64,000 nucleotides of DNA, from positions 186,001 through 250,000 of the forward strand of contig QPGO01000096.1 in assembly GCA_008632985.1 (NCBI GenBank). Reading direction: 5' to 3'. The notes below the pieces were generated by a model. The model made no database searches, was not told the DNA's origin, and saw only the letters and a program-made list of their open reading frames with translations. Origin of the DNA: Psammoneis japonica. Lineage: Eukaryota. The translations under genes and the position numbers were made by a program. This document shows, in pieces, positions 540-31,747 of this stretch. Positions within the stretch are counted from its first letter, which is position 1, and every line of letters starts with the position of its first letter.

Positions 540-1329
540 TGTTGATGTGCTTTAAGAGCGAGAAATGTTGTAGTGCAAGCCGAGTTTAGCCACAGTTTCA
601 TCGCCAATCGCAACCAGAATCTAACCACAATTTGAAATTGCAGCAGACAACTGGGTGTCAGGTGTCAGCCGACCGTTTTGTGACATGCCGTGTGGAGCGA
701 GCGAGCGTGGCGACATACATGCGACATCTCTATCGTGGTTGAAGATTCGCTCGGTTGGGGTGAGATTCATTTGAATCGCGACTCGATTGGCTTGCACGCC
801 GTCTTGTCAGCACAGTGACGCAAGGATGTCAAATTACACAAACCCATTCCTAGAATGATCCATGCCCCAGATGCAGCTCCCAAGACTTGATGCATGCATT
901 TGTTGGCTGTGGTGCAAGCTCCTCCTGTTGCTGGAGCATGGCCGACAAGTCGCAACCTGGCACAGCTCATTTTGTGGAGATGACAGAGAAAAGAGGAGCA
1001 GCAGCGGAGGGGTGCCCTGAATTTGACCAAAATGTTTGAGGCTGCAGGCCTTTGGCACAGCAGTCATGTTGACAGGGATGTTGATGGTTGTCCAGTTGAC
1101 GCATTTTTTTGGGTTGTCCACAGGGCTCTCTGGGGCTTGGACATTCGAACACCACACTGGAGCCACCGCATGGTCAGCGAAAGCTTTGATTTTCTCTCAC
1201 ACATGATTGATCACCTCAGCATGTGATTGCAGTGTTTCAAAAATTTTTTGCTTGTTGAAAGAAGATGGGAACCCATCCAATTCTAACTTGGCAATGTGTC
1301 TGCCTGGCTCAGATTCGTGCTGTGGCATG

Positions 1330-1495
1330 TTGTTTGGAGAAGGAAGAATTCACTCAACTTGGACTTTTTGCAAAGAACAGAGGCAACAAAAGAGACCTTG
1401 TTTCTGAACATGTTGTTTGGAAAAGGAAGAATTCACTCAACTTGAACTTTTTGCAAAGAACAGAGGCAACAAAAGAGACCTTGTTTCTGAACATG
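1330..1495. repeat. Tandem duplication, unit ~82 bp
   Basis: ttgtttgga(g/a)aaggaagaattcactcaactt...gagaccttgtttctgaacatg occurs twice head to tail. Confidence 0.8.
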
Positions 1496-2747
1496 GTGAG
1501 AGATGTTGAGAAGAGCAAAAGCTTTCCGACAATGAGCAGCCAACTTTGCTGCCCATTCTGCGGCTGCTGAGACAGGTGTTGTTGGATCAGCAAACAATGG
1601 TGCATTTTGGGTGCCTGGATGTTCTTGCAGGCAAGGAGAGTCATTTTTTCGACAGAACAATGTCCAAAACCCCGCAAAAAATGCTCGTGGCATCCATGAA
1701 TGACCATTGCCAGAAGCAAAGGGCAGGCTGGAGTGGCAACAATCCCGTCAGCAAAACACGTGCTCTTAAAATGCAATGAACAGCCCAAACAATTTTCAGC
1801 AAACACAACACAGGAACAGAAGGGAAAAAATGCAAAGGAGACCCTTGGTGAGCTGACAAATTGGCTGGCTGACTTTGACATGTGCTCATTCCCCCAAACG
1901 GCATCTCGAGCCTCTGGCACAGGTGTCACGGCCATTTCTTTCTTTGTTCCCACCATTTTACATTGAGCTGCTTGTTGCTTTGCCATGGCCAAACAACACT
2001 CTGCAAAGGCAGTGCTTGAGCACACAAGTCGCCGGATGCTGAGCCTGTGAGATGCTCTGAACCTGGCTTTCTTGCTGCTGGAGTGGACTCCTGTTTTGTT
2101 TTTGGGATCTCTTTCCATTGATCTTGTGCAAAATGAATGCACTCAGCATCAACACTGGGCACAATGACTCAACTGTTGAGAAATGCCGTGCAAGAACAAG
2201 AGAGAAAGCAATGATGATTGACATGAAATCTCATTGGCAACAGGGAAACATTCAAAAAGTCACTCACCTTGAAGCAGCGCATCTTTGACAATGCAGCTCA
2301 CAGTGACAACAATGTCCAGCAGTGCATTGTGCAGGTCTTCATGCATTTCTCCTTGAACAATGGCAGCAGCTGGCTCCTCAGGTTCATGGCGGTGCTTGGT
2401 GACAACATCTGGGATGCCAACAATCTGGGTCTTGTTCTGACCATCAAGAGTTGCTGGCTTCAATTTGGGTTTTTTCTCTGTTCAATCAAAAATGTTGTCA
2501 CCTTGAAAAATCTGCATTCCCTGAGCATTTGACAAGAACCTTTTTCATCCACCCAGTTCACTCATGTTTTGCTTCATGAGTGAGGCTGCATCTTCATTTG
2601 TGTTCATGTCATGTCATGAATGAAGCATGCCCCTGTTTTCCACATCCAAAACTTTGCAGTCATGCACAAAGTTGGATTTTTCCATTTCTCTGAAATTTTT
2701 GTCTGTGTGGGCACTCCTCTCCACACTCTCTTCTTTCCACATGTTCT

Positions 2748-2950
2748 CTCTTTTGTCAGATTCAAGAACACCCATGTTTCCCATCTTGCAACTGACTGTG
2801 ATGCTGGGGTTGGTCCCACCAAGTTGTTCAGCTCTGTCCACTTGTGTTGTCTCTTTTGTCAGATTCAAGAACACCCAATGTTTCACATCTTGCAACTGAC
2901 TGCGATGTTGGGGTTGGTCCCACAAAGTTGTTCAGCTCTGTCCACTTTGC
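2748..2950. repeat. Tandem duplication, unit ~103 bp
   Basis: ctcttttgtcagattcaagaacaccca...gttgttcagctctgtccactt occurs twice. Confidence 0.8.
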
Positions 2951-3819
2951 AGTTGACATGCTTTCATTGAGAAAATCAGGTCAAGCATCACCTCCCCCAT
3001 TTCTGCACCATTTCCAATTCTCTCCCTTCTTCTCTTGGATCCCCTGCCTTCCCAAGAACTGGCTCAGCTTCCTTGTCTGGTCAGACTCCTGCCTCTCTGT
3101 CCAATTGCCCCAGATGTCCTCACCGCTGAGTCCCCTTTTCCAACATTGCCCAGCATCTCAAGAAGTGTGCACCAAGCCATGACAAGGAGGGTGCTTCTTC
3201 CACAGTGCCATTCCTGGCAGTGGCCTGAATGCTCTCCCCCCATTGCAGATGACCTCTGTTGTGAACTTGGTGTCAACTCCATGTTTGGTTTTGGTGATGA
3301 TGCACCTGAACCCCCCTTCCCAAAGCTTGGTTAAATCTAGATTCTCCTCTGCATGCCAACATGGAGAATGAATCTGCTGTCAGCAAAGCTGCAGTTGGAA
3401 ACAGCACCTGCAGCCCCTTTCATCAGATGCTCTGGATGTTTGCATGCTCCCGCCAGGGCTGCAGCTGCAAATGCACACCAACTCTCATTTTGTTCACTGA
3501 TGATGGTGTTTCTGCCCCAGTGGGCAAAACTTTTGTCAACGTCCCCAACTTTGTTGCAACCAAATCTGTTGAAGCTTCAGTGGGTCCTCTTTTGATGTCC
3601 TGTTGTGTGGCTGCAACATGCCCTCCTTCTGATCCTGATGACTGTGCTGCTGATTCCTTGTTTGACCAGCACACAAGTCCACTTGGACCAGCACATTGTC
3701 TTGCCCCTGATGAGGGCTTCAATGTTCCCCCCATGTGCTCACCCAGCATCACACCCATTGCTCACCTGTTGCACTTGTGTTGTCAACCCAGTGTTGCCAT
3801 TTTGACTTTGTTGACAAAG

Positions 3820-4298
3820 CAACAAGAATGGTGCACAAAGAGCATGTCAAGAAGCAATTGGATTTGACAAAGATTTCCATGAGAACTGCTGTGACCATGA
3901 AGCAGCTGCTCACACTTTCCCCAGTGTGCCTTTGCCATGCTCCTGCTGTGATGCACTGGAGTGCAACAACCCGGTTGAACAAGAATGGTGCACAAAGAGC
4001 ATGTCAAGAAGCAACTGGATTTGACAAAGCTTTCCACAAGAAATGCTGTGACCAGCATGAAGCAGCTTCTCACACTTTTCCCCAATGTGCCTTTGCCATG
4101 CTCCTGCTGTGATGCGCTGGAGTGCAACAACCTGGTTGAACAAAAATGGTGCACAAAGAGCATGTCAAGAAGCAACTGGATTTGACAAAGCTTTCCACAA
4201 GAACTGCTGCAACCATGAAGCAGCTGCTCACACTTTTCCCCAATGTGTGCCTTTGCCATGCTCCTGCTGTGATGTGCTGGAGTGCAACAACCCGGTTG
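3820..4298. repeat. Three tandem units of ~160 bp
   Basis: aacaa(g/a)aatggtgcacaaagagcatgtcaagaagcaa starts at ~3820, ~3978 and ~4139. Confidence 0.85.
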
Positions 4299-4399
4299 AC
4301 CAACAGAAGAACAGACCCAAAAAGTGCCATCATTTTTCACCACCATTCCCAGTCTGATGCTTTGCCAAAATGTTGCAGGATCTTTTCACAGAGCCAGTC

Positions 4400-5524: not shown

Positions 5525-5789
5525 CTTGGAGTGAACGGCAGTCTTTCCACCCTCAGCCAACTCACTTGTGACAAAAAATGGGCAAGTTGCTTGCTTTGAC
5601 AATTGTTGCACACACCGACTGGCAGAAAACTTCTTGCTTGAGAAGAGGTGCAATCCTTTGTTTGACAGCAAAGAGAAAGAAACAGGTGATGGTTTTGAGG
5701 GGGGAAACTGGACAAGATGAGCAAATGACAGAATCCTCAGAAAGCAAACCAGAAGAAGAGGAGGAGGAGGATGTGAGTGAGGCTGCCAA

Positions 5790-6375
5790 TGAAGTCGCTT
5801 TGCCAAGCGTTTTTTGTGCTGCAAGGGTGAGTGGCACGATGAGCATCATCACAATGACCGTCTCAGAGAGCATGCTGTTGATCCATGTGCCAACGACTGC
5901 TCCTGCGATGGTCACGGGTTCCATGATGAGAAGCAGCTGCCAGTCAATTAAAGGCCGATCCGCAAGGGGATGCCGCTGTCGAACATTCAATGTGAGATTA
6001 GCCAGTGCTCCACCCAGCACAGTCACATTCGACAAAGGGATTGCATGTTTGGGGCTGAATCTCATGACGAGAATGTAAATGGGAACAAGCACACCCCCGC
6101 CACCAATGCCGCCGCCAGCAGCTAAAACCAACCCCAGAAAACAGAGAAAGAAACCTGCGCAGTCAGTTGGTTCAAGAGGGAACAATGACTCATGGATCTC
6201 TTCGTAAACGTGATCCCCTTCTTTGAACACCTTCTCCAGCTCCTCTTCCACGGCCACCGGGAAAGTCACATTGTCGTTCGTTTTGTCTGTGGCATCGACA
6301 AATCTCAGCAGAGTTCCCAAAAGCATCAGGAGGAGCGCTGGGGGACAGTGTTGAATCCTGAAGCTTCCAAATCAT
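5790..6375 (-). pseudogene. TauE/SafE paralog, copy B, frameshifted and mutated
   Basis: Aligns with 1-539. The G run near 6340 has 5 G versus 4 in copy A, shifting the N-terminus out of frame. EPTDYAG reads EPTDCAG. Family-like sequence appears to end near 5790. Confidence 0.8.
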
Positions 6376-6641
6376 TGCTGATGTGCATTGAGAATGAGAA
6401 ATGTTGCAGTGCAGGCCGAGTTTAGCCACAGTTTCATTGCCAATCGTAACCAGAATCTAACCAGAATTTGAAATTGCAGCAGACAACTGGGTGTCAGTGT
6501 CAGCCGAACGTTTTGTGACAACATGCCGTGGGCCGTGGAGCGAGCGCGTGGCAACATGCGACATCATCTCTAGAGGGGTCTTTGTGCAAGATTCTGCTCT
6601 CGAGCACCATCGGACGAAATGCCATCCCAGACAACCAACCA

Positions 6642-9600
6642 ATGGCCTCCACTTGCCCCTTTCAAGGAGATGACTCAAGACATGCCGAAGCATCAGTGGT
6701 TGAAAAGGGGCAAGTGGAGATCAAAGAGTTAAACAAAAAACACGGGATTGCACTTCGTGAGATTTTTGCTAGATTTCTCTATGGTGTGAGGACGCAACGG
6801 GAGTGGTGGTTCCCGACAAAGACAAGGGAGGCATTGGCAATGGGCAAAGGCCAACAGAAACACTTGTTGGGAACCTTGCTTGGGTTTGAAGATGATGCAA
6901 TGCAAGCTCTACTTGCAGTTGCTGGTCCAGCCGACACAAAAGGAGACGACATCATTTTGAAGCCAACCAAGTTTAACGATTTCTTCCACGAGCATTTCCT
7001 GGACAATGAAGTTGTGACAAGGAAATTTGGTGCTGAAACGAAAGGCAACAAGGTCCACTTTGTCAGAGTTGGTGGTGATGGTGACAGCGCAAAGGCTTTG
7101 GCGACAAAGGATCAGTTTTCAAAGGACAGAGACGACAGGCCAGAAATGCCAAGACACCGAGTGACCAAGCTGCGTCGTGATTTCACTGTTGGGGCAAATG
7201 AAACTCTGCTGAACGTGCTTGAAGAGTTTCACATGGACAAGAACTTGACAGTTGCAGAGTCTGAAGGCGAAGAAGAAGATTTGGAAGACAACGATGCTGG
7301 TGCGATTGAAGAAGAACACGAGGCGCTCGAACATGCGTCAGCCGCCCCCGAGGTGGAGGAGAAGCAACCAAAGGAACCAGCTCGGGAAGTTCTAGAAATG
7401 GAAAAAGAAATGGCTTTAGATGCCACTTGCTTCCCACAGTTGTCTAGGTTTGGCAATGGCTCAAAGGAGTGGGAACCATCGGCATTGGTGCAAGATGTCG
7501 CAAAGCTCCGACAAGATCAGAACCAAGGTGTCACAACTGGCAATCGTGATCCGATGCTGTTGGCACCAATCCCCAGCACACGGCAAGTGAACTGCAAGAA
7601 CTTTTGCAAGGGCTGTCAAAAATGGAAATGGCCTCAAAAGGTTCTGGAGCACGCAGGAGGTGGCGCAAAGACCAAAGACAGCGATGCTGCCAGCTCATTG
7701 GGAGCCGAGTGGCTTTGTCGGTGGTTGGCTTCTAAGTGTGAAGTTGAGTTTCTCACAGCGGCAAAGGAAGTTGGCCTCCCAGTCATACAACGGATGGATG
7801 GAACATCCGCAGGTGCCATGTGGAGTCAAGCAAACGTCAACATCAATCAGCAGAGAACAATGTTGCGGCATCTCCACCACCAGTTCGGGAAGAAAATTGT
7901 TGTGCCGGAGAAGGACGTCCGATCACTTGGTGATGGATTCATCCCCGCAAGCTGTGGAAAATGCCACTGCAAGAAAGAAGAAGGGAAGAAACCGGAAGTT
8001 GTTGATTGTTGGTCACGTTCCATTCCAGAGCTGGTGTGCGCTGAAACAAAATTCCAGCTGGAGAAGCAGATCGCTTCTGCAGAACATGACGGGGAAAAGG
8101 AACCGCCGTTGGCCAGTTGTCCGACTCATGATGGCGAGGGTTGGGGCATTGTGTGCGGAGGCAATCATGGAAAAAAGGAATGGACCGGTGTTGCTGAACT
8201 GTTCACCCATGGTTCGTCGTACAGAAGATCTCTAAAAGAAAAAATGATGCATGTTCAAGACAGTGAGCAAACGACAAAGGGTGGGTGCAGCACACTCAAG
8301 CATGCAAGCATCCAGTGCAGGAAGGACAACTCTGAAATGCTGGCCAACACAGTCTCACCTTCTGTCAATGAGGGGATGGAAAAGACAGTTTCATCTCAAC
8401 TTGTTGGCGTGCAACAAGGAGAAGGGACAAGCGCAGAGGTTGAGACAAGGCTCATCCCCAAGGATGCGTTTGCTGTTTGCGCAGCAGAGAAGGAGGGAAC
8501 CAATGTGTTGCAACACAGCATCTCAAGTGGTGAAGACGGCACATTTGTTTCCATTGTGGATGAGGCACTCACTTTGCAGGGTGGGGCTTGCAAGATTGTT
8601 CTTGCCGTGCCCAAGTTCACGATCTACATTGCTGGAGACCTCGCGTTTTACGCCGATGTTCTTGGGAAGCCCAACTCGAGTGGGCATTGGTGTCACATTT
8701 GCCTGCTGAACTGGAAAGAATGGAATGAGCGTCAGCATGAAAAAGGAGAGAAATGGACAATCGAGAAACTGCAAGCCGCACTCAAGAAGTTTCTCGACTC
8801 GAAAAGCGATGACGCGGTCATGGGGGTGCGGGAAACAATGCACTGTGCCAAAATCGGTCCTCACCTGTGTGTTTGTCCACCACTTCATCTTGAAATTGGA
8901 CTGTTCAACAAGGTGTGGGACGAGTTTACAGAATGGATTGATGCCGAATTGGAGCAAATTGATGATGAAGAGGTTGCGGCGCGGGTCAAGCCAGTTGCCG
9001 CGAAAAGTGTGCTGGATGCTGCCACAGAGGTACGAACCCATGCCAAGGATGTCACCGAGCTAGAAGTCAAGGATCTAAAGGTTTCAAAGCAAGCAGTGAC
9101 AAAAGAGCTGAAAAAGGAAGAGAGTGGAGCACCTGCAGATGAGGAGAAGGTAAACGACTTGGGTGAGCAAATAAAGGCAATGGAGTTGGCGACGGCAACG
9201 GCGGAAAAAAAGACACGAGATTCGAAGACGGATGTGAAGAGAAAACGAGCTCACCTCAAATCATGCAAAGATGCAGTGGCTGAGCTCAGGAAGGATCGTG
9301 GGTGGCCAGTTGACAGCACAGCCGTGCGGATCGAGACGATTCTGAAGAAGTGTGGCATCAACAGGGAGGCGCACCATGGCGGCAACTTTAACGGTGTGTC
9401 GTGTCGTGAGTTGGGCACCTCCATTGCTGAAATCATGCCAGAAATGAGAGAGCAAATGCTTGAAGCCAGAAAGCAATCGGGTGTGACCGATGCAGAGGTA
9501 AACAAAAATGTGACATGTGCGGGACTCTGCTTGGTCGGCTAGACGCCTTGTTCTCTTCGATGCAAGCCATCCATCCAACAAATGAGGAGCTCGAGGAAAC

Positions 9601-10003: not shown

Positions 10004-10944
10004 CAATGTAGTTTCTTTGTGCTCCGCCTTTCGTTCTTTTGCTTGGATTTTACAATTGACAACAGCGCCGCGACGACGGAAGCAACCATTGCGTTGCGAC
10101 TGCGGTGCTGTCAAAAAGACATTTTTTGGCTCCGAACCGTTGGATTCGTGAGACGTCATCACTGTGCAGAAATGTGCAGAGAGATTTGGTGCAGATCAGA
10201 TCAGCACCACATCCTGCGCACAGGGTCCCTGTGTGCACTTGAAACCGTCATGCGCCTCTCGACGAGGTCGCAAAGGTTTGTTTGAGGACTGAGGCGAGCG
10301 CGCGGTTGCATGAAGTTTTGAGTCCCGCCTGCTCGGGACTCGTCGACGCTTCCATCTGGACACCGCGGTGCACCACGGGAAAAAATGACGACGGGTGCGA
10401 CAATGGCATGCCGATGCAATGACTTTTGCTGGCAAGCATGTTCACTGCATGCAACTGGTTCTTGGGCTTTACACACACACCAACAAACGGGTTTGTGCAT
10501 TGCATGCAGTGGGTTTCATAAAATGGCACCGAAACAATGCACGATTCATCAAGCATTCGACAACGCGATAAAACCATGCAACACGTTGTCTCTTGTTGGG
10601 CATTGGGCAAGCGCGGATGCTTGGTTGACCGAATTGCAGATCCGGGGCGTGAGCAAAGATGTCACAGTAAAACAAATGAACAATGAATTGAAGAAGCATC
10701 CCCAACACGGCCCTCACCTGAAAGATCCAATCCGCGGAACCAAAGTTCGCGTCGTCAGTGTCATCAAAAGCACAAAGATCAAAAACAAGATGAACTGTGT
10801 CGCCTCCCACACTTGCCATCTCTTCTGCTGTGTGTGTCCGTGCAAAGCATTGGTTGAGTTGCCGTGTGATGTCCTGTGGCATTCTTGGCAGCAAACGCAC
10901 GAGAAAGATTGGTTCCGTGTCAGCACTCGCACACGCCAATCCAG

Positions 10945-11250
10945 TGACACCGAGTCCCAAGCTGCCCAATCTGCTCAACGCCAACCTGTGAATGGAGAAG
11001 AAGGGGGGGGGGAGACGACAGCACTCGTGCACACGAATCCGGCATTGCCGAGTCCCAAGCCACCGAATCTGCCCAATCTGCTCAACGCCAATCCGGTGTT
11101 GCCGAGTCCCAAGCTGCCGAATCCACCCAAGCTGCTCAAAGCCAATCCGGTGTTGCCGAGTCCCAAGCTGCCGAATCCACCCAAGCCACTCAACGCCAAT
11201 CCAGTGTTGCCGAGTCCCAAGCTGCCCAATCTGCTCAACGCCAACCTGTG
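10945..11250 (+). repeat. Pro-rich coding-type tandem repeats (NPVLPSPKLPNPPK, ~51-60 bp) in an unknown ORF upstream of the Tc1-like gene
   Basis: ccgagtcccaagc occurs five times within ORF 10385..11251. Confidence 0.8.
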
Positions 11251-14152
11251 AATGAAGGAGGACAAGAAGAAGAAGAAGGAGGAGGTGAGAGCAACAAGTC
11301 GCGGAAGGTTGACGCACTGGAGTCCGATGTGGCTCGCAAGTTTCTCAACATTCCAAGCGGTCACGTCCAAACGGCAATCTACGAATGCGTTGACCTGCTC
11401 TCCGAAGTTGTTCGATTGGAGAGGCCTTTGGAAAGTGTGCCAAACGAGCCGGCAGAAGGTGTGGTGGACGATGTCCTTTCAACCAAGGATGTGCAACACA
11501 TTTCGGGAAAGATGTCGCACATGCTGACATTTTGCCTGATGATTCTCAACAAGTGTCACAGCGCGCAAGGCAGGCGGGGCGGAAAGAGAGGGTTTGCCTT
11601 TCAAGACTGCGCCTCCGCTGCAATCAAAGCTGTCAATGATTCACCCACAAGCCCATGTTTGATCACAAACAGTCGAACACTTTTGAGCTGGCACGCATCT
11701 TTCAGATGCCGATGCAAGTTCGAACATCCACTCGCAAACTGGAAAGCATGCGAACCGCAAGTCTTTCAAGCATTCCCACAGTTGAAGTTGGAAGTCAAGC
11801 AAGTTCTCGACGCAAAGGTGCACTCAGACAATTTCAACACAGACACCGCAATGGAGTGCTTCCAAACAAGCTTTCTAGACCGCGTGCACGAAGAAATCAA
11901 GAAGGACGACCCGGAAAGTTGCGACGATGATGAATTGGACAACGAATTGGATGAAGAAGATGAAGCCAACGAAGACGCAACGACAAAGAAATGGAAGAGT
12001 GTGTTGGCACAGTTTGGCATGAAGACTCTTTGTCACTCTACGGCAGTTCGCTGGCTTGCTCACCCAGGGCACGCCATCAACAAGCTGTTGGAACTGTCAC
12101 TGCGACAGACACGAGAGTCCCGAGAATGTGAGAGCTCGTAAAAAGTTCATCGATTGGTTCACAGAACACGAAACGCCAATGCCCACATGGGCTCAGCTTG
12201 CCAAATCTGAGATCTCAAGCACCACAAGCAAGCTCCCGAATGCACGACACAGTTTTGCACGCAAGGATGGTGAGGCTTGCAAGGAGTTCTGTGTGCTTGA
12301 CGATGTGGCGGCGTTGCTGCCACTTTCCAAGCCCCAAGTTTTTCAAGGTGTCGAGTTCACCTGCAGTTTCTCAGTTCAAAAGGACCCAAACAAGCGACCA
12401 TTGATCACAGTTGGTCAAGACGAAGCCATTGTGAACCAGCATGCCTTTTCAAGCAGGGTGTGGCATGACTCAAAGGGCAGTGCTGTCATTCGGCCGAAAG
12501 TCCAGGTGATGGCACAATGTTGAGTGCATTCACAGGCTTTGCAACAGGCTTCGGCAGAGCTGATTTGCCGGATGTCACTCCCACGGTCCTTGCTCGCATC
12601 AACAGCCATTGGTCTGGGGCAAAGAGTGAACATTTGGACAAAGAAAGCGCCGCAGAAGTCTCTGACACTGGCTCAAGCAAGAAGAAGCAGTTTGCATCCG
12701 CAGATGACATTCGTGACATTTTTCTCACCAAGTTTCGCCACGGAAAAGACAAAGACGGGCATTGGAACAACGCGCATGCCGTGGTCCAGACAGAAGATGT
12801 TGCTGACTGCCTGCAAGGAATCTGCCCTGGTTTTGATTTTGCACTGCCATGTGACCAAAGTTCGGGGCATGCCAAGAAGCGACCGGAGTCGTTGAATGTC
12901 AATGTCATGAACGGTGGTTTCGGGGGGAATCAGCCACCAATGCACGACACATCACTTGCTGAAGACATGTTTGGACCTTTCATTGACAAAATTGAGGAAC
13001 CTTCTGGCGGCGGTTTCAAGGCTGGCGACCACCAAACCTTCAATTTTCCAAAGAATTCAACCGACCCAAGTCTGGATGGTCCAAAGGCGCTCAGCAAGGA
13101 AGAGCGAATTGACCAGCAGCATCCAAAGCCATTGCCTCCTAAGCAGGGAAAGCAACGGAAGAAGGCAGATCTCAGTGAGATTTGGTGGCAAGGAATCTCA
13201 TGAGCGAAGACGACAAGAGGAAAGTCGGTGAGCTCCAGCAACTGCTCGTGAATGCGAGCCTCCAATCCCAACACACGAGCCTTCAATTCCAAGACCAACC
13301 AAACGACCACGTGCCAAACCAGAACTCTTTGATGAATTGCTCGGAAAGGGGCCAATCCAGCCAAATCGCGGGCACAAAGTCGAGCGGCTGCAGGAGCTTG
13401 CACGGCAAAACAACACTCCAATCGAGACAGACTTTGTTCCAATGACGAAAAGCTGGGGTGGCGCTCCAAAAGGCATTTTTCAGATTTTGCACGAGACTGG
13501 TTGGATTGACCCCGAGAAGAAAGACCAGCATCAGGTCACAGCACCAAAGGAATGGTTGGATGTTGAGGGCAACGTCAAGCCAGAGCACCGTGATTTTGTG
13601 CTCACCGATTTGCTTGCGCGGTGTCAAGACTTCGCAGAGGAGCTCACAGCACTTGAATGGCTTGTTGGCGAAACATCCGACGAGACATGCACTGTCTCTG
13701 TCATCTTCTCGCCAAAGTGCCATTGTGAGATTGCAGGAGAAGGCATTGAAATGTGTTGGGGGTTCCTTAAGAAGTGCCACCGCCGCAAGTTCACAGCCAC
13801 CGAAAAGAGTCGCAACTTTTCCAAGTGTGTTGACGAAGCCTCAGCCGCTGCTGCCGCTTGAAAGGACACCACACGAAAGTGCGCCGGTCATGTTTGTGGA
13901 TGCATGATGGCTCATCGCGCAATTTCAGATGAACTTGGCGATGACTCCTTGTCCTTGTCCCACCAGCTTGTGGAGAAGTTTCTCCGCAAGCATCAGTGCC
14001 GCCGCTGTTCCGCCGATCAGGAAGGGTCCCTGATCAAGCAGGATGTGTCGGCAGCTTTGGACAATGAGCAAAGAACATTTTCAGCACACGTCTCAACAAA
14101 AAAAGCAGAGTTTCACATCACAAAAGTGCCACTTGCCGTCAAGAGATTGTAA
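11248..14152 (+). pseudogene. IS630/Tc1-like DDE transposase, frameshifted
   Basis: Motifs across consecutive frames: RPLITVGQDEAI, GKDKDGHWN, CDQSSGHAKKR, MNGGFGGNQPPMHDT, PKGIFQILHETGWID, CQDFAEE, FSPKCHCEIAGEGIEMCWG (family pattern PK[FY]HCE...IE..WG). Confidence 0.75.
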
Positions 14153-15781: not shown

Positions 15782-16062
15782 GAGTGACTCGGAGGGAGTG
15801 ACTCGCTTGCAAACAGTTTTAGATTGGATGATTCCATGCTGCTTGGCACTTTAGTTTCTTTGTTCGATGCTGCTCTAGATTCCATGCCGGCATTGCTCTG
15901 GGTTGTTTGTTCAACAACACTCTAGATTGGACACTGCTCCAGGATCTTTGTTCAGCGCAACTCTAGATTCGACACTGCTCTGGGTTCATTGTTCAATGCC
16001 ACTCTAGATTCGACAATGCTCTGGCACCAGTGCAATCATGCAGTGGCATTGTTGACTCTAGA
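15782..16062. repeat. Dispersed repeat with GAGTGACTCGGAGGGAGTGACTCGCTTGCAA end and tandem CTCTAGATT sub-repeats (mutated copy)
   Basis: The reverse complement of 15782-15825 matches 55750-55793. Sub-repeats such as ctctagatt...gctct.ggtt..ttgttca are shared. Confidence 0.75.
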
Positions 16063-16145
16063 GTGTCTGTTTTTTTTTTTTCCATGTTGCTGGCATCCAT
16101 CCCAATGAAGATCCACACACGATGGCATGGTGCAAATGCCGCCCC

Positions 16146-16937: not shown

Positions 16938-17016
16938 TTTTTCTACAAAGGAGCTTGGCGCGTTTCTACGTTGTGGTGAGAGCAGAATTTCTTTTGTGGT
17001 GAGAGCAGAATCTTGT

Positions 17017-22330: not shown

Positions 22331-22559
22331 GTCAGTCAGTCGCTCGGCAGTCTTTTGCGTTTTCGACGGTTGGCGTAAACTGCATGCAGGAATTGGCAAC
22401 ATTTTTGAAAGCACTGAACTCCCACGAATCTTCCACACGCCAAATCATGGCATCAATTCTGCCATTGCACACAAAAGTGACAGTGATTGAGAAATTTAGC
22501 AACGGTCACGACACAAACAGCCAATCTCAAAATCTGCGCTCGTTTCGATCTCGATCCCA

Positions 22560-22856: not shown

Positions 22857-23086
22857 AATGGCAGTGCAGGTGTCGCCAGTCAAGTCCAGAGGTCGGGGCA
22901 AATCGAGTGTGTCTCTCCGGCCTTGAGTCCGTGTCACTCTTGTGTCTTTGAGTGCAGGAAGTTGCCTGTTCGCTTGACCCAGAAGGGTCACGGCTGTTGA
23001 AACAGACAGCAGCGTTCATCTGCGAAGCAGCAAAAGCTTGCCAAGCAGATCATGCCGCTGACGGAACACAGGTTTGGGGTTCCGTC

Positions 23087-23558
23087 AGTCGTGGTTCGTC
23101 TGTCCACTGACCCAGATTCTCTGTTGTGTCTGTGCTTCCGTCAGTCGGAATTCTTGTTGAAATTCTTTTCACGCCACATCGACTCGATTCTCAAGCCGAA
23201 TGCTTTGGGGATCACAGGCGGTGCTTTGGAGATCACAGGCTTTGCGTGGATGTTGGACCAACCATGGATTGGTTCAGCAGCACTTGGATGATTGTTGTGA
23301 ATGTGGTTGACCCTGAAGTTTGTGCTGGTCTCTAGTGCAAACCTGCGGATCAACCTCTGTTTGGGTGCATTCAGCAGATTCAGTCTGGGCAGCTTGTAAT
23401 TTGGTCACTGGCACTTTTGTGAAAGACCAAATGCTCGTTGCTGCTTGTCAGCAGATTCCATCTACTTGCATTCTGCCTGAGGTGTCGATCTGGAGTGGAC
23501 ATCCAATCGATGCGTTAGGAAGGCACTCGGAGCTTGCGTGGACACGCGAGCTTCGACT
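23087..23558 (+). repeat. 5' LTR (AGTCG...CGACT)
   Basis: Aligns without gaps to 31276-31747. Confidence 0.95.
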
Positions 23559-23561
23559 GGT

Positions 23562-23579
23562 TGGTTCGCCCAATTGGGG
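23562..23579 (+). promoter_or_regulatory. Putative primer-binding site
   Basis: TGGTTCGCCCAATTGGGG begins 3 nt after the 5' LTR and starts with TGG, complementary to a tRNA CCA end. The cognate tRNA was not identified. Confidence 0.5.
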
Positions 23580-24101
23580 CAACTTAACATGTTCTACACT
23601 TCTGGTTGGGGACGCCCAAACCAGAGCAACCCTGTCAATGGCTCTGATGCCATCAGCGCTCCTCATCAACTGCGCTCCGTGCTCTTGACATCAAGTGCTG
23701 CGACTGACTCCGTCAGCTGAATGGCTGGTTCCGCCAGAAGGTTCATTGTTGATTTTGCACGTCCACCATCTCAGGTCCTGCTCCAGATGCATTCCAGCCC
23801 TGGGTGGGAGCTCGCAGTGCTGACGTGTGACAACAACAATTTTTGTCATCTGTCGCATGTTTCGCACGTAGATTTCTGCATGTGACATTTAAAAAAAATT
23901 GTCCAGACTCACTGTTTTGCGAAGCCCCAGACGTTTTATGTGACAAATTTATAGAAACAACAATGCGCCAGTTACATTCTTCAATGTCTGAAGAATGTAA
24001 CTGGCCAAGTAAAAAATGATGTGCTTCAATCATGTGCGAGTTTGTGCGTTCGCAAAATTGCCTCATTTTCTGTTGGCGATCATTGACACTTTAATTGCCG
24101 T

Positions 24102-26450
24102 GTGATTTTACTGCGGAGCTCGCACGCAGAAGTCTACGGGCCCAATGTCACACGGATTCCCACCTGCGTCTGGAACGCGTCTCCACCCCATGGCCCTCCT
24201 GAGACCCAAGAGAGTTCTCCAAGCTTGCACTCTTTGATTGAGAACGTCCCAGACGATTGGTCTGACTCGATGGCTTCAAGCGCGCTGTCGGACATGGCTG
24301 ACGACCCCGAAGTGTTCGAGGATCAGCCTCCTGAGGATCAACCTCCACCGGGGGATGATCCACCACCTCAGGACCCTGACGACCCAGACAACTGGCCTGT
24401 TCCACCCTTGGAACTTTGCCCGGACGATTCGGATGACGACTCGGACGATGATGATGATGAGCCCGCTGCAGGCTCCGGCATGTCGGAAGATGAGCGTCGC
24501 ACCGTTCAGGCCATGGCTGCCATGGCAGCCGCGGTGATGCCGAAGACGAAAGTCTGCAAACCCAAGGCTCCCAAGATGGGGGGGGTTGTCTCCATTGGCT
24601 CTGCTGAGAAAGTTGCTTGGACCGGTGGGAAACCCAAGGCTGACTGGTCCAGATTGGAAACTCCCAACTCCAGTCCAATGTCACCAAACCAGCATCGCTC
24701 CCACCACGTTTTTTCTGCCCAGAAGAGCAAGGCCCACCGCGTTGCCGGACTTTCAACCAAGTTTGATGAGAAGGGAGATCTTGCAACCTTTGAGAAGAAC
24801 GTGATGAAGCATCTCAAGGACTGCGGTTTGGATGTGGCAACTCACCTGCAGGACCCCGAGGACTCAACTTCTGTGACGTCTTGCGTTGAAGGACATCCTC
24901 GGTGTTCCAAATCGAGCGTCGCCCATCTTGTCGCACCTCAACTCACCAAGTGTGACTCCTGCGATTCATCCAATGACAGGGACACCACTGAGTTTCTCAA
25001 GAACTCCTTGGAGGCTGGCCCAGTCGTGCAGCTGGATCTGGAGATGGAAGAGTCGGATTGCTTTCCGAAAGTCTGGATGGCTCTCGTTGTGATCCTCCAG
25101 AGCACGTCCATCGAATGCTTCAAGCAGCTCGAAAAGCAGCTGGAGGAACTCAAGCCCTCCCAGTTCGCCGGTCAGGATCTCTCCCAGCTCCCACCCAAGT
25201 TCAAGACTGCGGCCCAAGAGTCAGATGTTGCGGGTCAGTGCGACCACAAGCCAATGCTTGCCTTGGTCAACGCTTGCCTGGAAGCTGGCGGGGATGGTGA
25301 AAACGGTCAGCAGTTCAAGCATGCCCTTCGCACTGTCAAAGAGAATTTGAGCGAAGCACTTGTTGAGACAGTGCACAAGTCTAAGATGGACACGAAATGA
25401 CACCTTGCGTCCAAGAACCTCACCTGCTCTCAAGTCATTGGGAAGATCCTGGACCGCTGCCACTTGTTCAAGAACAACATGCAGTGGGATCCTGTCAAGC
25501 ACTCGACAGACTCCAAAGCTGCTCCCAGAGCCTTTGGAAACCCAGTGCTTGATCCCTCAGCCACTTGTCAAACGGTTGGAGTTCCACTCACTCAGGCCCA
25601 GTTCAGTGCTCTCTTCCAGCAGACAACTGCTCCCCACAAGAAGACTCCGGACAACTCTCCGTGCAACAACTGCGGCAAGCTCGGACACTGGGCACGTGAC
25701 TGTCCCAACAAGTCCAACGAGGGTGCTGGAAACAACCAAGGCGGCTCAAACCCTGGGCAAAATGGTGGAGGACAAGGAGGAAGGGGCAGGAACCGCTCTG
25801 GTGGCAACGGCAGTCAAGGTGGCAATGGAGGCAACGGTGACGGTGGCGTCACGTGCAACTGGAAGAAGGTCGCGCCTCGTCCCGGACAACCTGAGTCCAA
25901 GGTTGCTCAATGCAGCATGCATGCAGACAAAAGGTCATTTTTGTCATGCCCTTTGTGACATTTAAAGGCTGCAACACGTCACCGTGACACATTGACTCTC
26001 ATCAGTGGCTGTGTGTTGCACTCCTCCCCATGTGTCACGCGTCCATGCGGCTCTTTACTGATGTGTGCTGACACTGCACGGTTTTGGCGGAACAGTGTGG
26101 GTGTGTGCGAAGGAACACACAGAACTGCACAGAGTTTTGCGCATTCGACAGTGATCAACGTTGCTCCAGACAACTCCCACTCAGGGTTTCGAACCCCTGG
26201 CCTCCTGCCTGATGGTTGCGATGAACCACTCCGCTGTGAATTCATGATGCAGCATGCATGCAGACAAAAGGTCATTTTTGTCACGCCCTTTGTGACATTT
26301 AAAGGCTGTGACACGTCGCCGTGATGCGTTGACTCTTGCCAGCAGCTGTGTGTTGCATCAGGGCAAGACTTGGCACTGGTGTGCCAAGTGCCGTCGTTGG
26401 TCCACCACTCGCGGTGCTGCCAAGCATGGGCAGAAGGATGAGTCACCTCC
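24102..26450 (+). pseudogene. copia gag with zinc knuckle, frameshifted and interrupted by a TRIM-like insert
   Basis: AWTGGKP motif; CNNCGKLGHWARDC (CX2CX4HX4C); GKTWHWCAKCRRWSTT resumes after the insert. Confidence 0.85.
25911..26357. mobile_element. TRIM-like mini-element: 110-bp direct repeats around a 227-bp non-coding core, nested in gag
   Basis: 25911-26020 and 26248-26357 are gap-free direct repeats with TG...CA ends. Flanks TCAA/TCAG form an imperfect 4-bp TSD. Gag reads ESKVAQ|GKTW across the site. Confidence 0.7.
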
Positions 26451-27228
26451 CGTGCCGACTCAGCAGGCCAACACCCTCTTCCTGGATCCTGGAGTGTGGC
26501 ACGCGGAATTCGACTTTGAGCTGGGATTCAAGGATGCACTGCTTGGACCATCTCAGGTTGTGCTCACCTTGATCCACCCTTTTGCATCTCCGCTGCTCTG
26601 TGCTGCCTTGGGACATTGGTGTTCTCAGCTTCCGGCCAACTGGTGGATTGCTGGAGTCGACGCCATGATCTGGTTCATGGCGGTCATTGCGTCGCACATC
26701 TCGTCACATTGGCATCTCTGTCCTTTGCCCGCTGTCTGGTTCCTTCTGCTTCTAGCGGCTGTGTTCTTGCCGTCTGAGTTTGAGCGTGATGCTCGTGCCA
26801 AAGCCCTGCGTGCTCCTCCTCCACCCCCTCCCCCTTGCTGGGCCACACGCCAAGGAACCAAGTTCTCCAAGTGCCGTGAACATTGGGGGCGTCATTGCCT
26901 GCGGGAGCTTCAGCCTTGCTGCGGACGCCGCCACACTCCACCCAGGCACCCCTCTCTCGTTCAACGAGCTCGTGGGGTGCCTGATGTCAAGCAGCGGCAG
27001 CGCAATCAGTTGCACGACCTCAGTGAAGAGGTCAAGGCCTTCGAGCGGTCACTCACCTTCATGCGCGCACGTCCTCTCCTCGGTTGAGAGGGAGAAGCCG
27101 GTCATCCCAAGGGCACCAGACGTTGCAAGAGTGCCGCTCTAAAAAGGGGTCCCGACACTCGTCATCGAGGTTGTCGAAACCTCAATGCACCCACGTGTCA
27201 CCCTGTTGGTTCGAACGCTGCGCACGGT

Positions 27229-30200
27229 TTGACGCGCTCCCAGCTTGACGCCATCTGCTCCCCAGCAGCCAAGGCTTGTCTTGCCAATGCCGACGTCCCG
27301 TCACCTCTACTTTCTGTTGCTGGTGCTCTCAAGGCGGCATTCACAAGTCCCAAGGAGACAAAGGAGGTGGTTAAAGAGCACACCTTCCCGGTCATTTGGG
27401 ACTCAGGAGCAAGCGCATCGGTCTCACCTTGCAAGAACGACTTCGTCGGGCCTCTCGAGAAACCACCTGTCGCTGTCCGGCTCCAAGGTGTTGCAAAGGG
27501 GCTCCATGTGGCAGGTGTTGGACATGTTGCTTGGTCTTTTGTTGATGTTGCTGGGGTGCTTCGGACCCTGAAGGTTCTGGCCCGCTACATCCCCAAGTCC
27601 AAGGCTCGTCTCTTGAGCACGACCAGTCTCTTGCAGACGCACTCGGATGAGTCCATCAAACTGCTGTCGGACCGCACCATCCTCAGTGGATCCAAGAATC
27701 GTGAACAAGGACACACAGGCGAGGTGTTGAAGTGTTGATTGAACCTTCAACTAACCTGCCAGTTGGATGGGCCTGTGCGAATCAAGCAAGTCAACAAATT
27801 TGTGAGGAGTTTCATTTGACGTTGTCGACGATTGTGGAACACAATCACAATGTCTCACCTGCTGAAAAGGAGCCACTGCGCTGGCACTTTCGTCTCGGGC
27901 ATCTGAGCTTCCGAAAGGTGCAATTTTTGATGCACACGGGAGTTCTGTCCCACTCCGAGGGCACCCGTCATTTGCATGAACGTGCTTGTTGCATTGATCG
28001 TCCGCCCCTTTGTGCCGCATGCCAACATGGAAAACAAAAATGCCGTCCCAGCCCCGGAAAGACTTCTCGTGTCGTCAAGGATCGAGCTGGAGCCTTGAAG
28101 AAGGATCAACTGTTCCCCGGTCAACGAGTTTCGGTTGATCATTTTGTTTGTTCCACTCGTGGTCGTCTGAAACACACTTTTGGAAAGGAGAGCATAAAAC
28201 ATCAGCATTCAGGCGGAGCAATCTTTGTGGATCATGCATCTGGTTGTGTCAACGTTCAACATCAAACTCACCTTGACACCCATGAAACTTTGACGGCCAA
28301 GAACGCATTTGAGGCCCATTGTCGTGATCATGGCATCATTCCCCAAGAACATCTGAGCGACAACGGAAAGGCATTCACGTCGGCCAATTTCAGGGTTCAC
28401 TTGGAATCTTTTGCTCAAGTTTCAAAGCATGCCGGTGCAGGAGCTCACCATCACAATGGGGTTTGTGAACGAGCAACACACACCGCGATGTTGATCGCGA
28501 GAAGCATGATGTTGCACACGGCGATCCATTGGCCTGATGTTGCGGACGTCACTCTTTGGCCTTTGGCTGTGGACCATGCTGTCATGCTTTACAATGCGAT
28601 GCCAGACCCATCTGCGGGTCTCAGTCCACAGGATGTGTTCACCCAGACGCGTCATCCTCACTCTCGGTTCCAGGATTGTCATGTTTGGGGGTGCCCTGTT
28701 TGCGTTCTTGACAAAGCCCTCGCCGATGGAAAGAAACTGCCAAAGTGGAAACCCCGCGTGAGTCGGCATGTCTGTGTGGGATTCAGCCCCGAGCATGCCT
28801 CGTCAGTCCCACCAGTCTTGAGTCTTGAAACGGGAGCCATCACTCCACAATTCCATGTCATTTTTGATGATTGGTTTGCAACGGTTCCTGCCAATGCTGG
28901 CTCATCACCTGCCATTGGGTCTCCGGAATGGACGTCTCTTTTCGGAGACAGTGTGCATCAACACACCATGGATGATGAAGAGCAGGCTGATGTCAACATC
29001 CGTCAAGAACACCCAGAATGTGAGCGCCAATCCAAGGAAATCCGCAAAACCGTCACCCGCCGGTCGCCTCCCAAACCCTTGCAGGTCCCTCCTCCGGCTG
29101 CTCAGGCACCAGTGTCTTCTCCCAAGCCCCCTCGAGTCCCACTGTGGAACCCCCGGTCCCTGAGGTGGAGTCTGTGCCTCCATTAGAGTCTCCTGCTGAA
29201 CCCGTGGCTTCAGACTTGCCTCAGAGGGAGAGAGCACCCGCCGCCAACTCAAATGCCCCACCAAGTCCTCAGAGGGAGCCTCCTGCCCCTCAAAGTCTTT
29301 CTTCGGATCTCGGTCAAGAGAGGGAGTCACCACCTGTGGCTCCACCCAGCGCACAACGCCCCTCTCCAACCCCAGTTCGTCGCTCAACCCGGACTCACGC
29401 TGCACCTCAGCGGTTTGGACATGATGGATCTCAGGGACACGGATGCTTGTCCCACTTCATTGATTTCCATCATGCACACAAGTTTGACCACGGTTGCAAC
29501 ACATCCATGACCACTCCTGCCGTGTGCAAGGCGTCGGCGCGTAAAGTCAAGGATCCGGGTGCGCCATCGTGGGACGAGGCCATGCGCTCTTCCGATTGCG
29601 ACAAGTGGTTGAAAGCGGCTGAGATCGAGATTGCAGCACTTGTCCATCAAGGAACGTGGATCGAGGCACCCATGTCCAATGCTCAAACCAAGATCCTTCC
29701 CGGCACTTGGGCATTTTGTCGCAAGTGATCACCTTCAGGCGAGATCAAGAAATGCAAGGCTCGCCACTGTTGTCGCGGCGATCTGCAGGAAGGAAGTCTG
29801 TTTGACACTTGTGCACCGGTTGCAGCCTGGAGCACGGTTCGAGTGTTTTTGGTGTTGAGTCTTGTTCTTGGATGGCACACGGCATCCGCCAATTTCCAGT
29901 CTGCATTCGTTCAAGCAGCACTTCCCGCAGAAGAACCAGTTTGGGTTCATCTTCCACGAGGTTTCAGCTCGACGAAAGGACCCAAGACTTGTCCCAAGCT
30001 CGTCAAGAGTCTCTGTGGACTCTCTTTGGCTCCAAAGTTGTGGCACGAACATTGTCCACAAGCCTTCTTGGACTTGGGTTTCATCCAAAGCGAGTGCGAC
30101 CAATGTCTCCTGCTTTGCCATGATTGCATGGTCTGCCTGCATGTCGACGATTGCGGGATCAGTGCAGCGCAGGAGTCCACCATTGATCAGCTGACATTTC

Positions 30201-31129
30201 AGCCACGCGAGAAAGGATTTGATTTGACAAAGGAGGGCAGTTTTACCAAGTTCTTGGGTGTCAAGTTCGAAAGGAGAGACGATGGTGCCATCAAGTTGAT
30301 GCAGAAAGGGTTGATTGACAAGATCCTGTCAGCAACCGGCTTGGTTGACAGCAAACCAAACTTGCTCCCTGCGGCGTCCCAAGCCCTCGGCACTGATGCG
30401 GACGGAGATCCCATGCAGGAGGAATGGAGCTGTCCCTCCATCGTTGGAATGCTCCCATGCTTGTCCACCAATGCCCATCCTGACATTTCCCTCGCCATCA
30501 GTCAGGTTGCATGCTTTGGTTCCAACCCGAAACAGTCGCGCTCAACCGCCGTCAAGACTCTGGTCCGCCACTTGAAAAGGATGCATGATCAGGGGATGCT
30601 GCCATCTCCAACCGGTTGTTTGGATCTTGATTTGTGGGTTGATGCCAATTTTGCTGGTCTCTGTCGCTGCGAAGCGGACTCTGATCCGAATTCTGTGAGG
30701 TCATGCACCGGACACATCACAACTCTCAGTGGATGTCCTTTGGTGTGGAAATCGCAGCTCCAGTCGGCTGTTTCCTGCTCCACCCTCAAAGCTGAGCATC
30801 AAGCCGCCTCCCATGCTCTTTGGACTCTCCCACCTTTGAAGAACCTGCTCCTTGAGATCGTCTTTACCTCAGACATCTCCCAAGATCTCAGGACTTCGGT
30901 TCGTGCGCGCATGTTCGAAGACAATCAAGGTGCTTGCCACCTGGCTGCCAACCACCGCATCACCAATCACACCAAGCATTTTCTCGTCAAGTGGCATTGG
31001 TTCTGGTCGCATTGTGATGAGTTTGGTGCAATTAAGGTGGAATCGGCCGAGCAACTCGCCGATTGTCTTGCCAAGCCTTTGACTCGAGAGCTCTTCCAGA
31101 ACAACCGGTTGAAGGTCCAAGGGTGGCAG
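27229..31129 (+). pseudogene. copia pol (protease, integrase, RT, RNase H) with frameshifts and systematic Tyr->Cys/His
   Basis: PR: VIWDSGAS. Pre-integrase: WHFRLGHLSF. IN: VSVDHF, SDNGKAF, HHNGVCER, WGCPVCVL. RT: KCKARHC, KSLCGL, CLHVDD. RH: WVDANFAG, FEDNQGA, QLADCLAKPL. Confidence 0.95.
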
Positions 31130-31266
31130 CACTTTGGAAGCATCGCTTCCTTCATTTGTTGTGTGTTGTGGCTCGGTCAAGATGTGGGAGCTGTGCTCTG
31201 AACTTGCACCAATTGTGTGAGCTTTCTCGTTTGCGATTTTCTTGTTGGTTGCTGGAATCTGTGAAT

Positions 31267-31275
31267 GAGAGGGAG
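31267..31275 (+). promoter_or_regulatory. Polypurine tract
   Basis: GAGAGGGAG directly abuts the 3' LTR. Confidence 0.8.
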
Positions 31276-31747
31276 AGTCGTGGTTCATCTGTCCACCGAC
31301 CCAGATTCTCTGTTGTGTCTGTACTTCCGTCAGTCGGAATTCTTGTTGAAATTCTTTTCGCGCCACGTCGACTCGATTCTCAAGCCGAATGCTTTGGGGA
31401 TCATAGGCGGTGCTTTGGAGATCATAGGCTTTGCACAGATGTTGGACCAACCATAGATTGGTTCAGCAGCATTTGGATGATTGTTGTGAATGTGGTTAAC
31501 CCTGAAGTTTGCACTGGTCTCTAGCACAAACCTACGGATCAACCTCTGTTTGGGTGCATTCAGCAGATTCAGTCTAGGCAGCTTACAATTTGGTCACCAG
31601 CACTTTTGTGAAAGACTAAATGCTCGTTACTACTCGTTAGTAGATTCTATCTACTTGCATTCTGTCTGAGGTGTCGATCTGGAGTGGACATCCAATCGAC
31701 ACGTTAGGAAGGCACTCGGAGCTTGCGCGGACACGCGAGCTTCGACT
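31276..31747 (+). repeat. 3' LTR (AGTCG...CGACT); retains many more TpA than the 5' LTR
   Basis: Aligns without gaps to 23087-23558. Confidence 0.95.

Follow-up and report, generated by a model that had tools for sequence, protein, structure and literature searches.

Locus organization

The 64,000-nt stretch of DNA analysed here (the window) alternates between blocks of host genes and three blocks of transposon-type DNA in which the dinucleotide TpA (TA) is almost absent (Table 1). We find that A:T pairs at TpA steps in this DNA have been changed to G:C on both strands and after insertion, and a record of the change is kept by a Ty1/Copia element at 23087-31747. This element has a 472-bp pair of long terminal repeats (LTRs) and the order gag, protease (PR), integrase (IN), reverse transcriptase (RT) and RNase H (RH), with a weak match to the protease barrel. 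All of its frames are inactivated, through HVDD in place of YVDD, frame shifts and the absence of Tyr from conserved columns. The Copia family is high-copy, with 5900 contigs matched. A contig of a public DNA run joins 23080 to 31747 with 6 letters shared. It resembles an unoccupied insertion site, with the target duplication, in another copy of the surrounding repeat.

The third block contains an element with identical 67-bp inverted ends (50155-50221 and 55184-55250), and its depletion begins ~800 bp to the left of the left inverted end. These ends are the one feature in favour of a DNA transposon at 50155-55250. The frames of the transposable elements (TEs) other than Copia gave no usable Pfam family even at E<=5, and no DDE transposase domain was found by Pfam at E<=5 in the elements at 6.5-14 kb and 50.2-55.2 kb. 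Of the four unrelated element types proposed in the first-pass annotation, the Copia family and one inverted-end element are therefore supported and the others are unconfirmed, as are the labels "Tc1-like" and "transposase". The 1007-aa frame at 6519-9542 holds 4 Tyr, the number given in that annotation for a ~1120-aa transposase.

Table 1. Features of the 64,000-nt window
Feature	Coordinates	Strand	Description
TA-depleted block 1	730-31400		Nested repeat and transposon DNA; right edge at 31322-31404
TauE-type host gene piece, copy	5836-6565	-	Pfam TauE; 8 TA, against 17 in its twin at 1-728
Copia 5' LTR	23087-23558	+	4 TA left, heavily mutated; 92.8% match to 31276-31747
Copia internal region	23559-31275	+	gag, protease barrel, integrase and RT-RNase H frames; Pfam gag_pre-integrs, rve, RVT_2, Pol_BBD
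TA-bearing pocket in Copia	23840-24182		11 TA kept
Copia 3' LTR	31276-31747	+	17 TA left, partly mutated; edge of the depleted zone inside
Host gene block 1	31748-37150		Normal TA; Pfam M48, M50B, DUF716, BSD; 94-nt intron at 32846-32939
TA- and CpG-depleted block 2	37190-43400		Rich in tandem repeats; no family assigned
TA-depleted block 3	49335-55385		Holds the element with 67-bp inverted ends
Control gene blocks	31748-37150, 43401-49333, 55401-64000		Normal TA

TpA depletion in three blocks

Using counts expected from base composition and profiles per kb across the window, we observe an observed/expected (O/E) ratio for TpA of 0.06 at 730-31300 (121 TA against 1874 expected), 0.05 at 37200-43400 (19 against 402) and 0.08 at 49400-55400 (30 against 357). 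The three gene blocks have 229 TA against 377 expected, 263 against 437 and 352 against 610 (O/E 0.58-0.61), so TpA is nearly absent from three blocks and normal between them, as the first-pass annotation had reported. On the per-kb scale the ratio is 0.00-0.21 at ~1-31, 38-43 and 50-55 kb and 0.40-0.77 in the gene blocks. The edges of depletion are abrupt and, judged from the TA positions, are resolved within 80-300 bp: dense runs of TA, spaced ~24 bp apart in the gene blocks, end or begin at 31322-31404, 37188|37266, 43325|43461, 49333|49633 and 55253|55385. Both CpA and TpG are raised in the TE blocks, with O/E 1.43-1.88 compared to 1.06-1.23 in the gene blocks, and GC content is 0.49-0.51 compared to 0.46-0.47.

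The depletion extends to the LTRs and to non-coding stretches, and the residual TA in the gag, IN and RT frames prefers no single codon phase. The loss of TpA is therefore not a codon effect, in agreement with the first-pass annotation, which had set aside codon bias. In the encoded proteins, the TE frames hold 10 Tyr in 5044 residues, whereas the host frames hold 73 in 3099.

Depletion of CpG follows a different pattern. The CpG O/E ratio is 0.05-0.35 at 1-6, 17-22 and 37-43 kb, where TG+CA reaches 1.65-1.98, and block 2 has 49 CG against 372 expected. Elsewhere in the TA-free DNA CpG keeps an O/E of 0.6-0.97, and within block 1 it is near normal at 6-17 and 22-31 kb. Since CpG loss is patchy (0.05-0.97 per kb) and TpA loss uniform, the two are separate processes, and methylation-type CpG decay differs between elements or ages. 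The separation of CpG decay from TpA loss drawn in the first-pass annotation thus stands, with the qualification that some of the TA-free DNA has a strong deficit of CpG as well.

A further property of these blocks concerns stop codons. TAA and TAG are almost gone from the TA-free blocks, leaving TGA as the sole remaining stop, and this yields long overlapping false open reading frames (ORFs) on both strands, for example 10322-11251 (+) and 10469-11344 (-). Gene callers will over-predict in such DNA, which matters for annotation.

Direction and timing of the changes

The two LTRs of the Copia element (23087-23558 and 31276-31747) differ by 29 events, of which 20 are TA-type, 7 are CpG-type, 2 are other transitions and none is a transversion. 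The TA-type events are strongly polarised: at 14 of them the 5' LTR reads TG or CA where the 3' LTR reads TA, a single one runs the other way, and the remaining 5 are doubles in which TG stands against CA. An excess of changes from TA to TG or CA, expected by the first-pass annotation for polarised substitutions, is thus present in this pair. Because the LTRs of one insertion are identical at the start, their 20 TA-type events place the change after insertion. Outside TA and CpG the LTRs have diverged by ~0.4%, whereas ~95% of the expected TA has been lost from the Copia interior (O/E 0.05 with 23841-24182 excluded), which would imply that TA changed at a much higher rate than the rest once the element was in place. 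Since depletion stops inside the 3' LTR, one element has been treated unevenly where it sits.

Other copy pairs show the same direction. The TauE pair (1-728 and 5836-6565) is 93% identical and has 10 differences from TA to TG or CA and 1 reverse; with 12 transversions, compared to none in the LTR pair, it is the older of the two. A 125-bp repeat with copies at 36897 and 42956 has TA in the copy outside block 2 and TG or CA in the twin inside it. In an inverted pair, 55567-55793 and 15782-16079, the outer copy, which lies outside block 3, keeps TA that the inner copy has partly lost. This repeat has a 41-bp unit containing CTCTAGATT, and since CTAG is among the slowest contexts to change (see below), many TA of the CTCTAGATT repeat survive even in the inner copy (15782-16079). 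As a separate observation on the TauE copies, they flank a 5.1-kb block depleted of both TA and CpG, and their duplication may extend past the start of the window.

The TA-bearing pocket of the Copia interior contains a perfect 17-nt inverted repeat (23967-23983 and 23989-24005, a hairpin at 23967-24005). Many contigs diverge at 24152-24182, and k-mer depth in the pocket is very high. From these features the pocket is probably a small high-copy element inserted after hypermutation; if so, hypermutation would be episodic, as in the alga Bigelowiella natans, to which we return below.

Loss of conserved tyrosines

Tyr codons begin with TA, and TpA loss can be followed at conserved Tyr columns. 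We defined Tyr columns as those with Tyr in at least 60% of relatives. With 129 relatives, RT has 9 such columns; integrase, with 75, has 3, and protease, with 15, has 1. The Tyr-poor proteins P0016, P0044 and P0065, which are among the 150 best relatives of the RT frame, were left out of the consensus. All 13 of these columns have changed in the window, to Cys in 5, His in 7 and Trp in 1, with Tyr kept in none. By contrast with this complete loss, other conserved columns were retained at 140 of 174 positions in RT, 116 of 133 in IN and 34 of 38 in PR, and most of the remaining non-Tyr changes are CpG-type (Arg replaced by His, Cys or Trp, and Thr by Met). The RT-RH frame contains no Tyr in 490 residues from stop to stop, compared to a median of 2.96% in the 150 best relatives. 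Of the individual replacements listed in the first-pass annotation, HVDD, SLCG, KCKARH and WGCPVCV are present, as is its RT-RH ORF without Tyr; the Pro in its KEPLRWH is coded by CCA.

Three of the 150 best RT relatives are themselves Tyr-poor, with 0.05% Tyr in P0016, 0.27% in P0065 and 0.84% in P0044, and have raised Cys and His. The 2061-residue P0016 has 1 Tyr; of the 13 columns, 12 read Cys or His in this protein and the remaining one reads Phe. At those 12 columns it has the same residue as the window in 4 cases and a different one in 8, a mix that is predicted by independent resolution of TAY to TGY or CAY (Y, pyrimidine). Judging from these sequences, the same process seems to be recorded in other public entries (P0016, P0065 and P0044).

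Fate of the lost TpA

If TA is converted to TG or CA, the sum of TA, CG, TG and CA is expected to stay constant, as it does. The window Copia has 233.5 of these dinucleotides per kb (TA 2.6, CG 49.6, TG+CA 181.3), and a set of 80 metagenome relatives (80 loci at 43-59% identity) has 234.0 (TA 34.8, CG 47.0, TG+CA 152.2). Across all TE blocks the sum is 238.6 per kb, compared to 237.5 in the gene blocks. The unchanged sum indicates that the lost TA became TG or CA.

The same relatives bear on whether such elements could lack TA from the outset. TpA O/E in the 80 loci is 0.33-0.72, with a median of 0.54 and none below 0.3, whereas the window Copia is at 0.05. On this comparison the Copia lineage is not natively TA-poor; active elements natively free of TA, which the first-pass annotation had named as an observation that would undo its reading, did not appear in this sample, in which hypermutated copies were disfavoured.

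Strand symmetry and sequence context

The two products of TpA loss are equally frequent. On the plus strand of the Copia element we count 702 TG and 696 CA, and the two are near-equal in the other blocks as well. Given this equality, the changes cannot have come mainly from the editing of single-stranded RNA or cDNA intermediates. Together with the Cys and His replacements at the Tyr columns (5 against 7), it upholds the claim of the first-pass annotation that both strands are hit.

The probability that a TA survives depends on its neighbours. Relative to gene-block frequencies, and with the 170 TA of the full blocks counted, survival is 0.54 for TTAA, 0.29 for CTAG and 0.27 for CTAA, compared to 0 for ATAT and 0.006 for GTAT. 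For a context model we used 145 surviving TA, leaving out the half-mutated region 5836-6999 and the pocket at 23841-24182. An additive model with four rates outperforms a single rate under two different baselines (likelihood-ratio test chi-square 150-173, 3 degrees of freedom), with rate-time products of ~0.45, 1.6, 0.75 and 3.0 for a 3' flank of A, C, G and T, or the complement on the 5' side. The preference is thus one of the duplex: RTAY (R, purine) is fastest and YTAR slowest, with TTAA and CTAG the last to go.

Sequencing reads and copies

The stretch occurs in the data of a single study. Contigs of its DNA run agree with the window letter for letter in two parts of block 2, apart from a single 1-base gap at 38055-39964 and without any gap at 41096-41999. 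Contig depths in block 2 are 26-43, similar to those in the neighbouring gene block. Exact matches at gene-block-like depth argue against an assembly slip and against strict dependence on repetition. The first-pass annotation had proposed that raw reads with TA at these sites would point to an artefact; the contigs agree with the assembly in both stretches, in a run that is possibly from the same sample. Its description of the process as repeat-targeted does not fit these depths, nor the repeat copy just outside a block that keeps TA. At 1304 variant places among copies, transitions number 245-291 per kind and transversions 20-37 per kind. Among 40 of these 1304 places, 3 have TG or CA in the window against TA elsewhere and 16 have TG or CA in the window against CG.

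Host genes

The host genes between the blocks carry Pfam M48, M50B, DUF716, BSD and TauE domains. They are compact, being single frames of 259-652 residues, and most have no intron. A contig of run X2 lacks 94 nt (32846-32939) of the M48 peptidase gene; the missing part has GT..AG ends on the minus strand and is an intron. This run is RNA-like, on the basis of the one spliced contig, and is not recorded as RNA. Of 30 bins, 14 show depth in this run, chiefly those of the gene block, and most of the Copia interior and of block 2 shows none; this lack of cover is given no weight as evidence here. An M50B-like host frame has, at its 3' end, an exact tandem duplication of 49 bp (46998-47098; 100% match over 2.1 copies). 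No tRNA and no Rfam family was found in the window.

Two host proteins give an indication of the lineage. The N-termini encoded at 34775-35554 (-) and 47684-48958 (-) resemble a signal peptide followed by Phe at the predicted cut, AA|FAF and QG|FLS, and the second of these proteins has a weak PAP_fibrillin match. We take a signal peptide with Phe at the cut to be the heterokont plastid-targeting pattern (ASAFAP type) and not the chlorarachniophyte one. Chlorarachniophyte genes are intron-rich. We take the host to be heterokont or diatom-like, and very probably not B. natans. Four host proteins had no exact match in the protein collection searched.

A probable post-integration hypermutation process

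A signature of TpA to TpG or CpA has been reported by Mettrop et al. (bioRxiv 10.64898/2026.01.13.699255) in mutation-accumulation (MA) lines of B. natans. According to the main text of this preprint, 231 of 302 nuclear point mutations fell in two viral inserts; all but one of the viral-insert mutations were A>G or T>C, with every one of these changes at TpA. The rate is given as ~6e-7 per site per generation, far above background and in some lines only, and the process appears episodic. The authors also describe 324 low-TpA coding sequences enriched in DDE and RT domains and 124 clusters depleted of TpA and enriched in CpA+TpG, conclude from the hitting of a single-copy target that the process is not repeat-induced, and propose an ADAT2-like candidate enzyme (10.64898/2026.01.13.699255).

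The LTR pair, Tyr columns, copy pairs, mass balance and relatives agree with the core of the first-pass annotation, namely a post-insertional, both-strand, TpA-specific change of A:T to G:C in transposon-type DNA. We regard post-integration TpA hypermutation of silenced transposon or foreign DNA as the best explanation of the window as a whole, and as a quite probable one. In such a model the three blocks would be silenced transposon or foreign DNA in which, after integration, a DNA-level process replaces A:T by G:C at TpA steps, so that TA on either strand becomes TG or CA with about equal chance. The target would be the chromosome and not RNA or cDNA. The change would run close to saturation and hardly alter the rest of the sequence, preferring RTAY and sparing TTAA and CTAG, and would proceed alongside ordinary CpG decay and independently of it. 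Its reach would follow the sharp bounds of the inserted or silenced domain and not just the number of copies. With Tyr codons, TAA and TAG stops and other TA-bearing codons destroyed, the elements would be killed. Of this model, the sequence itself shows the signature, its direction and timing after insertion, its strand symmetry, its context bias and its independence from CpG decay. We infer that the process is of the same kind as the TpA hypermutation of B. natans and serves genome defence.

In chemical terms, a TadA/ADAT2-type enzyme, directed to its targets by small RNA or silent chromatin, may deaminate adenine in the DNA. Of the possible chemistries, we give a deaminase somewhat less than an even chance and thymine oxidation a clear minority share, with the remainder going to something else. 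At rates like those of B. natans, saturation would take on the order of 1e5-1e6 generations, over which background divergence would be far below 1%, as would fit the LTR data. A wider proposition is that TpA-directed A:T>G:C hypermutation is a widespread eukaryotic defence that is also present in a heterokont or diatom-like alga, saturates on LTR and inverted-end transposons, is set by sharp silent domains and not by repetition, prefers duplex RTAY, and relies on a dedicated DNA-acting enzyme (an adenine deaminase or a thymine dioxygenase). We hold the case for and against this wider proposition to be evenly balanced.

Several points weigh against this explanation. A strand-specific neighbour model, applied to 38 sites where one copy keeps TA, was right in 17 of 28 informative cases (p=0.17), with a likelihood worse than 50:50, and the context bias therefore does not speak directly for a deaminase acting on single strands. 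Of the two patterns by which the metagenome relatives were retrieved, one required Tyr, and hypermutated copies were thereby disfavoured. The DNA run may be the source of the window assembly itself, in which case the read check is not independent. Some of the TA loss may be common to copies and so older than their spread. The identical, TA-free 67-bp ends fit either no original TA or mutation before the last move, and several edges are sharper than a usual chromatin boundary and could be junctions of already-mutated DNA.

Alternative explanations

The last of these points lead to the possibility that the blocks were TA-poor before they arrived, having been mutated extrachromosomally or at a donor site, or being copies of mutated elements that spread by duplication or trans-mobilisation. 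The very sharp edges at 37188|37266 and 49333|49633 would be expected in this case, as would the inverted ends and the few rows with TA in other copies among the 40 variant places. However, the LTRs of a single insertion differ at TA-type events, the edge falls inside the 3' LTR and not at the end of the element, the host TauE piece inside block 1 is half depleted compared to its twin, and in block 3 depletion starts outside the left inverted end. In B. natans, too, the events arise in place (10.64898/2026.01.13.699255, main text). We therefore consider prior mutation improbable. An artefact of base calling, polishing or assembly, in which a modified heterochromatic base is written as TG or CA in place of TA, gains something from the uncertain platform and independence of the matching run. 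It is nevertheless very improbable, because read-built contigs match two depleted stretches with a single 1-base gap, the LTR-LTR differences are unlike a sequence-tied error model, Tyr-less relatives (P0016 and P0065) occur in public protein sets, and the same signature comes from Illumina MA lines of another alga (10.64898/2026.01.13.699255, main text). Scarcely credible is native avoidance of TA, for example through selection against UpA in RNA, or ADAR-like editing of retrotransposon RNA before reverse transcription. Avoidance of UpA and U-preferring ADAR editing are both known, and the main text of the B. natans preprint mentions the latter (10.64898/2026.01.13.699255). Against this stand the loss of catalytic and other invariant Tyr, the normal TA of relatives, the equal hitting of strands, the post-insertion divergence of the LTRs, and the fact that an inverted-end element, non-coding DNA and a host gene piece are hit as well.

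A rival that accepts hypermutation in place and differs in the lesion is that the primary damage lies on thymine, with a JBP/TET-type dioxygenase making 5-hydroxymethyluracil (5hmU) or 5-formyluracil at TpA in silenced DNA and mispairing or repair fixing T>C. As TpA is self-complementary, A>G and T>C are not separable by sequence, and the thymine route gives the same TA to CA or TG. 5-Formyluracil mispairs with G; 5hmU itself pairs well with A, which speaks against the route, and we know of no thymine dioxygenase or 5hmU in the lineage of the window. In dinoflagellates, according to PMC11572971, 5hmU replaces T preferentially at TA and TC and is connected with the silencing of transposons. In the window, TpC gives no sign of being lost, with O/E 1.08, 0.84 and 1.19 in the TE blocks compared to 1.06-1.22 in the gene blocks. 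On balance we find a thymine lesion unlikely. Two further candidates were rejected. Pol-eta-type mutagenesis at WA (W, A or T), which the first-pass annotation had offered as a mechanism, does not agree with ApA being retained (O/E 1.24-1.32 in TE blocks, 1.11-1.16 in gene blocks) or with the near-absence of non-TA changes, at most 2 of the 29 LTR events lying outside TA and CpG. Fungal repeat-induced point mutation (RIP) is contradicted by TpA being lost and not gained and by the gene-block-like depths at which the depleted stretches are matched.

Comparison with known systems

RIP in ascomycetes resembles the window in using dinucleotide-specific transitions to disable transposons and in leaving sharply bounded blocks of odd composition (10.64898/2026.01.13.699255, main text). 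However, RIP converts CpA to TpA and lowers GC, whereas the window has the reverse change and higher GC in its TE blocks. RIP also needs duplication, whereas here depths are gene-block-like and a repeat copy outside a block is spared. CpG decay at 5-methylcytosine likewise acts on a self-complementary pyrimidine-purine step, produces TpG and CpA on both strands, and is present in the same blocks, but it differs from the TpA loss in base and direction and is patchy where the TpA loss is uniform.

The deaminase defences (APOBEC3 on retroviral cDNA, ADAR on dsRNA, TadA/ADAT2 on DNA) share with the window an editing-type hypermutation of invading nucleic acid. APOBEC causes C>T before integration, on a single strand, and the substrate of ADAR is RNA, whereas the window shows change in integrated DNA on both strands. 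ADAR prefers a 3' G, and the survivors in the window instead show that RTAY goes first. A preference for a 5' U or T is described for both ADAR and TadA (10.64898/2026.01.13.699255, main text). The 5hmU of dinoflagellates is similar in its enrichment at TA and its association with transposon silencing. This base is an epigenetic mark for which the accessible part of PMC11572971 describes no mutational outcome, whereas the window offers a mutation signature.

The closest system is that of B. natans, in which, as in the window, A>G or T>C changes occur only at TpA, on either strand and in foreign DNA only, according to the main text of the preprint (10.64898/2026.01.13.699255). There the process was measured directly and is far from saturation, with a Rho TpA of 0.45 in the nucleocytoplasmic large DNA virus (NCLDV) region, whereas O/E in the window is 0.05-0.08. 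The clusters described in that main text are a few kb in size, compared to window blocks of 30, 6 and 6 kb with sharp edges, and the window further differs in having LTR and inverted-end elements as targets and CpG decay superimposed. We found no wider sequence context reported in the main text, where the words "diatom", "stramenopile", "trinucleotide" and "flanking" are absent (10.64898/2026.01.13.699255), whereas the window has a tetranucleotide preference. The host lineage of the window also appears to differ from that of B. natans. Our literature search, outside which most subscription journals lay, found no description of the signature beyond this preprint and none for diatoms.

The window is thus a further case of a process described once, in 2026, in another lineage: the first-pass annotation was right about the process, and its word "undescribed" has been overtaken by the B. 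natans report (10.64898/2026.01.13.699255, main text). What the window adds is a saturated end-state, transposon targets, sharp domains, a tetranucleotide preference and independence from CpG decay. The end-state, the edges, the preference for RTAY with slow TTAA and CTAG, and the independence from CpG each constrain both the enzyme and the signal that targets it. Should the host be a heterokont alga, as it appears to be, TpA hypermutation would be known from a second lineage, very far from the first, where it would act on transposons at full strength. If true, this would turn a single-species curiosity into a candidate general defence, RIP-like but with the opposite chemistry and raising GC, and a natural TA-specific DNA editor of A:T to G:C would be of interest to the base-editing field.

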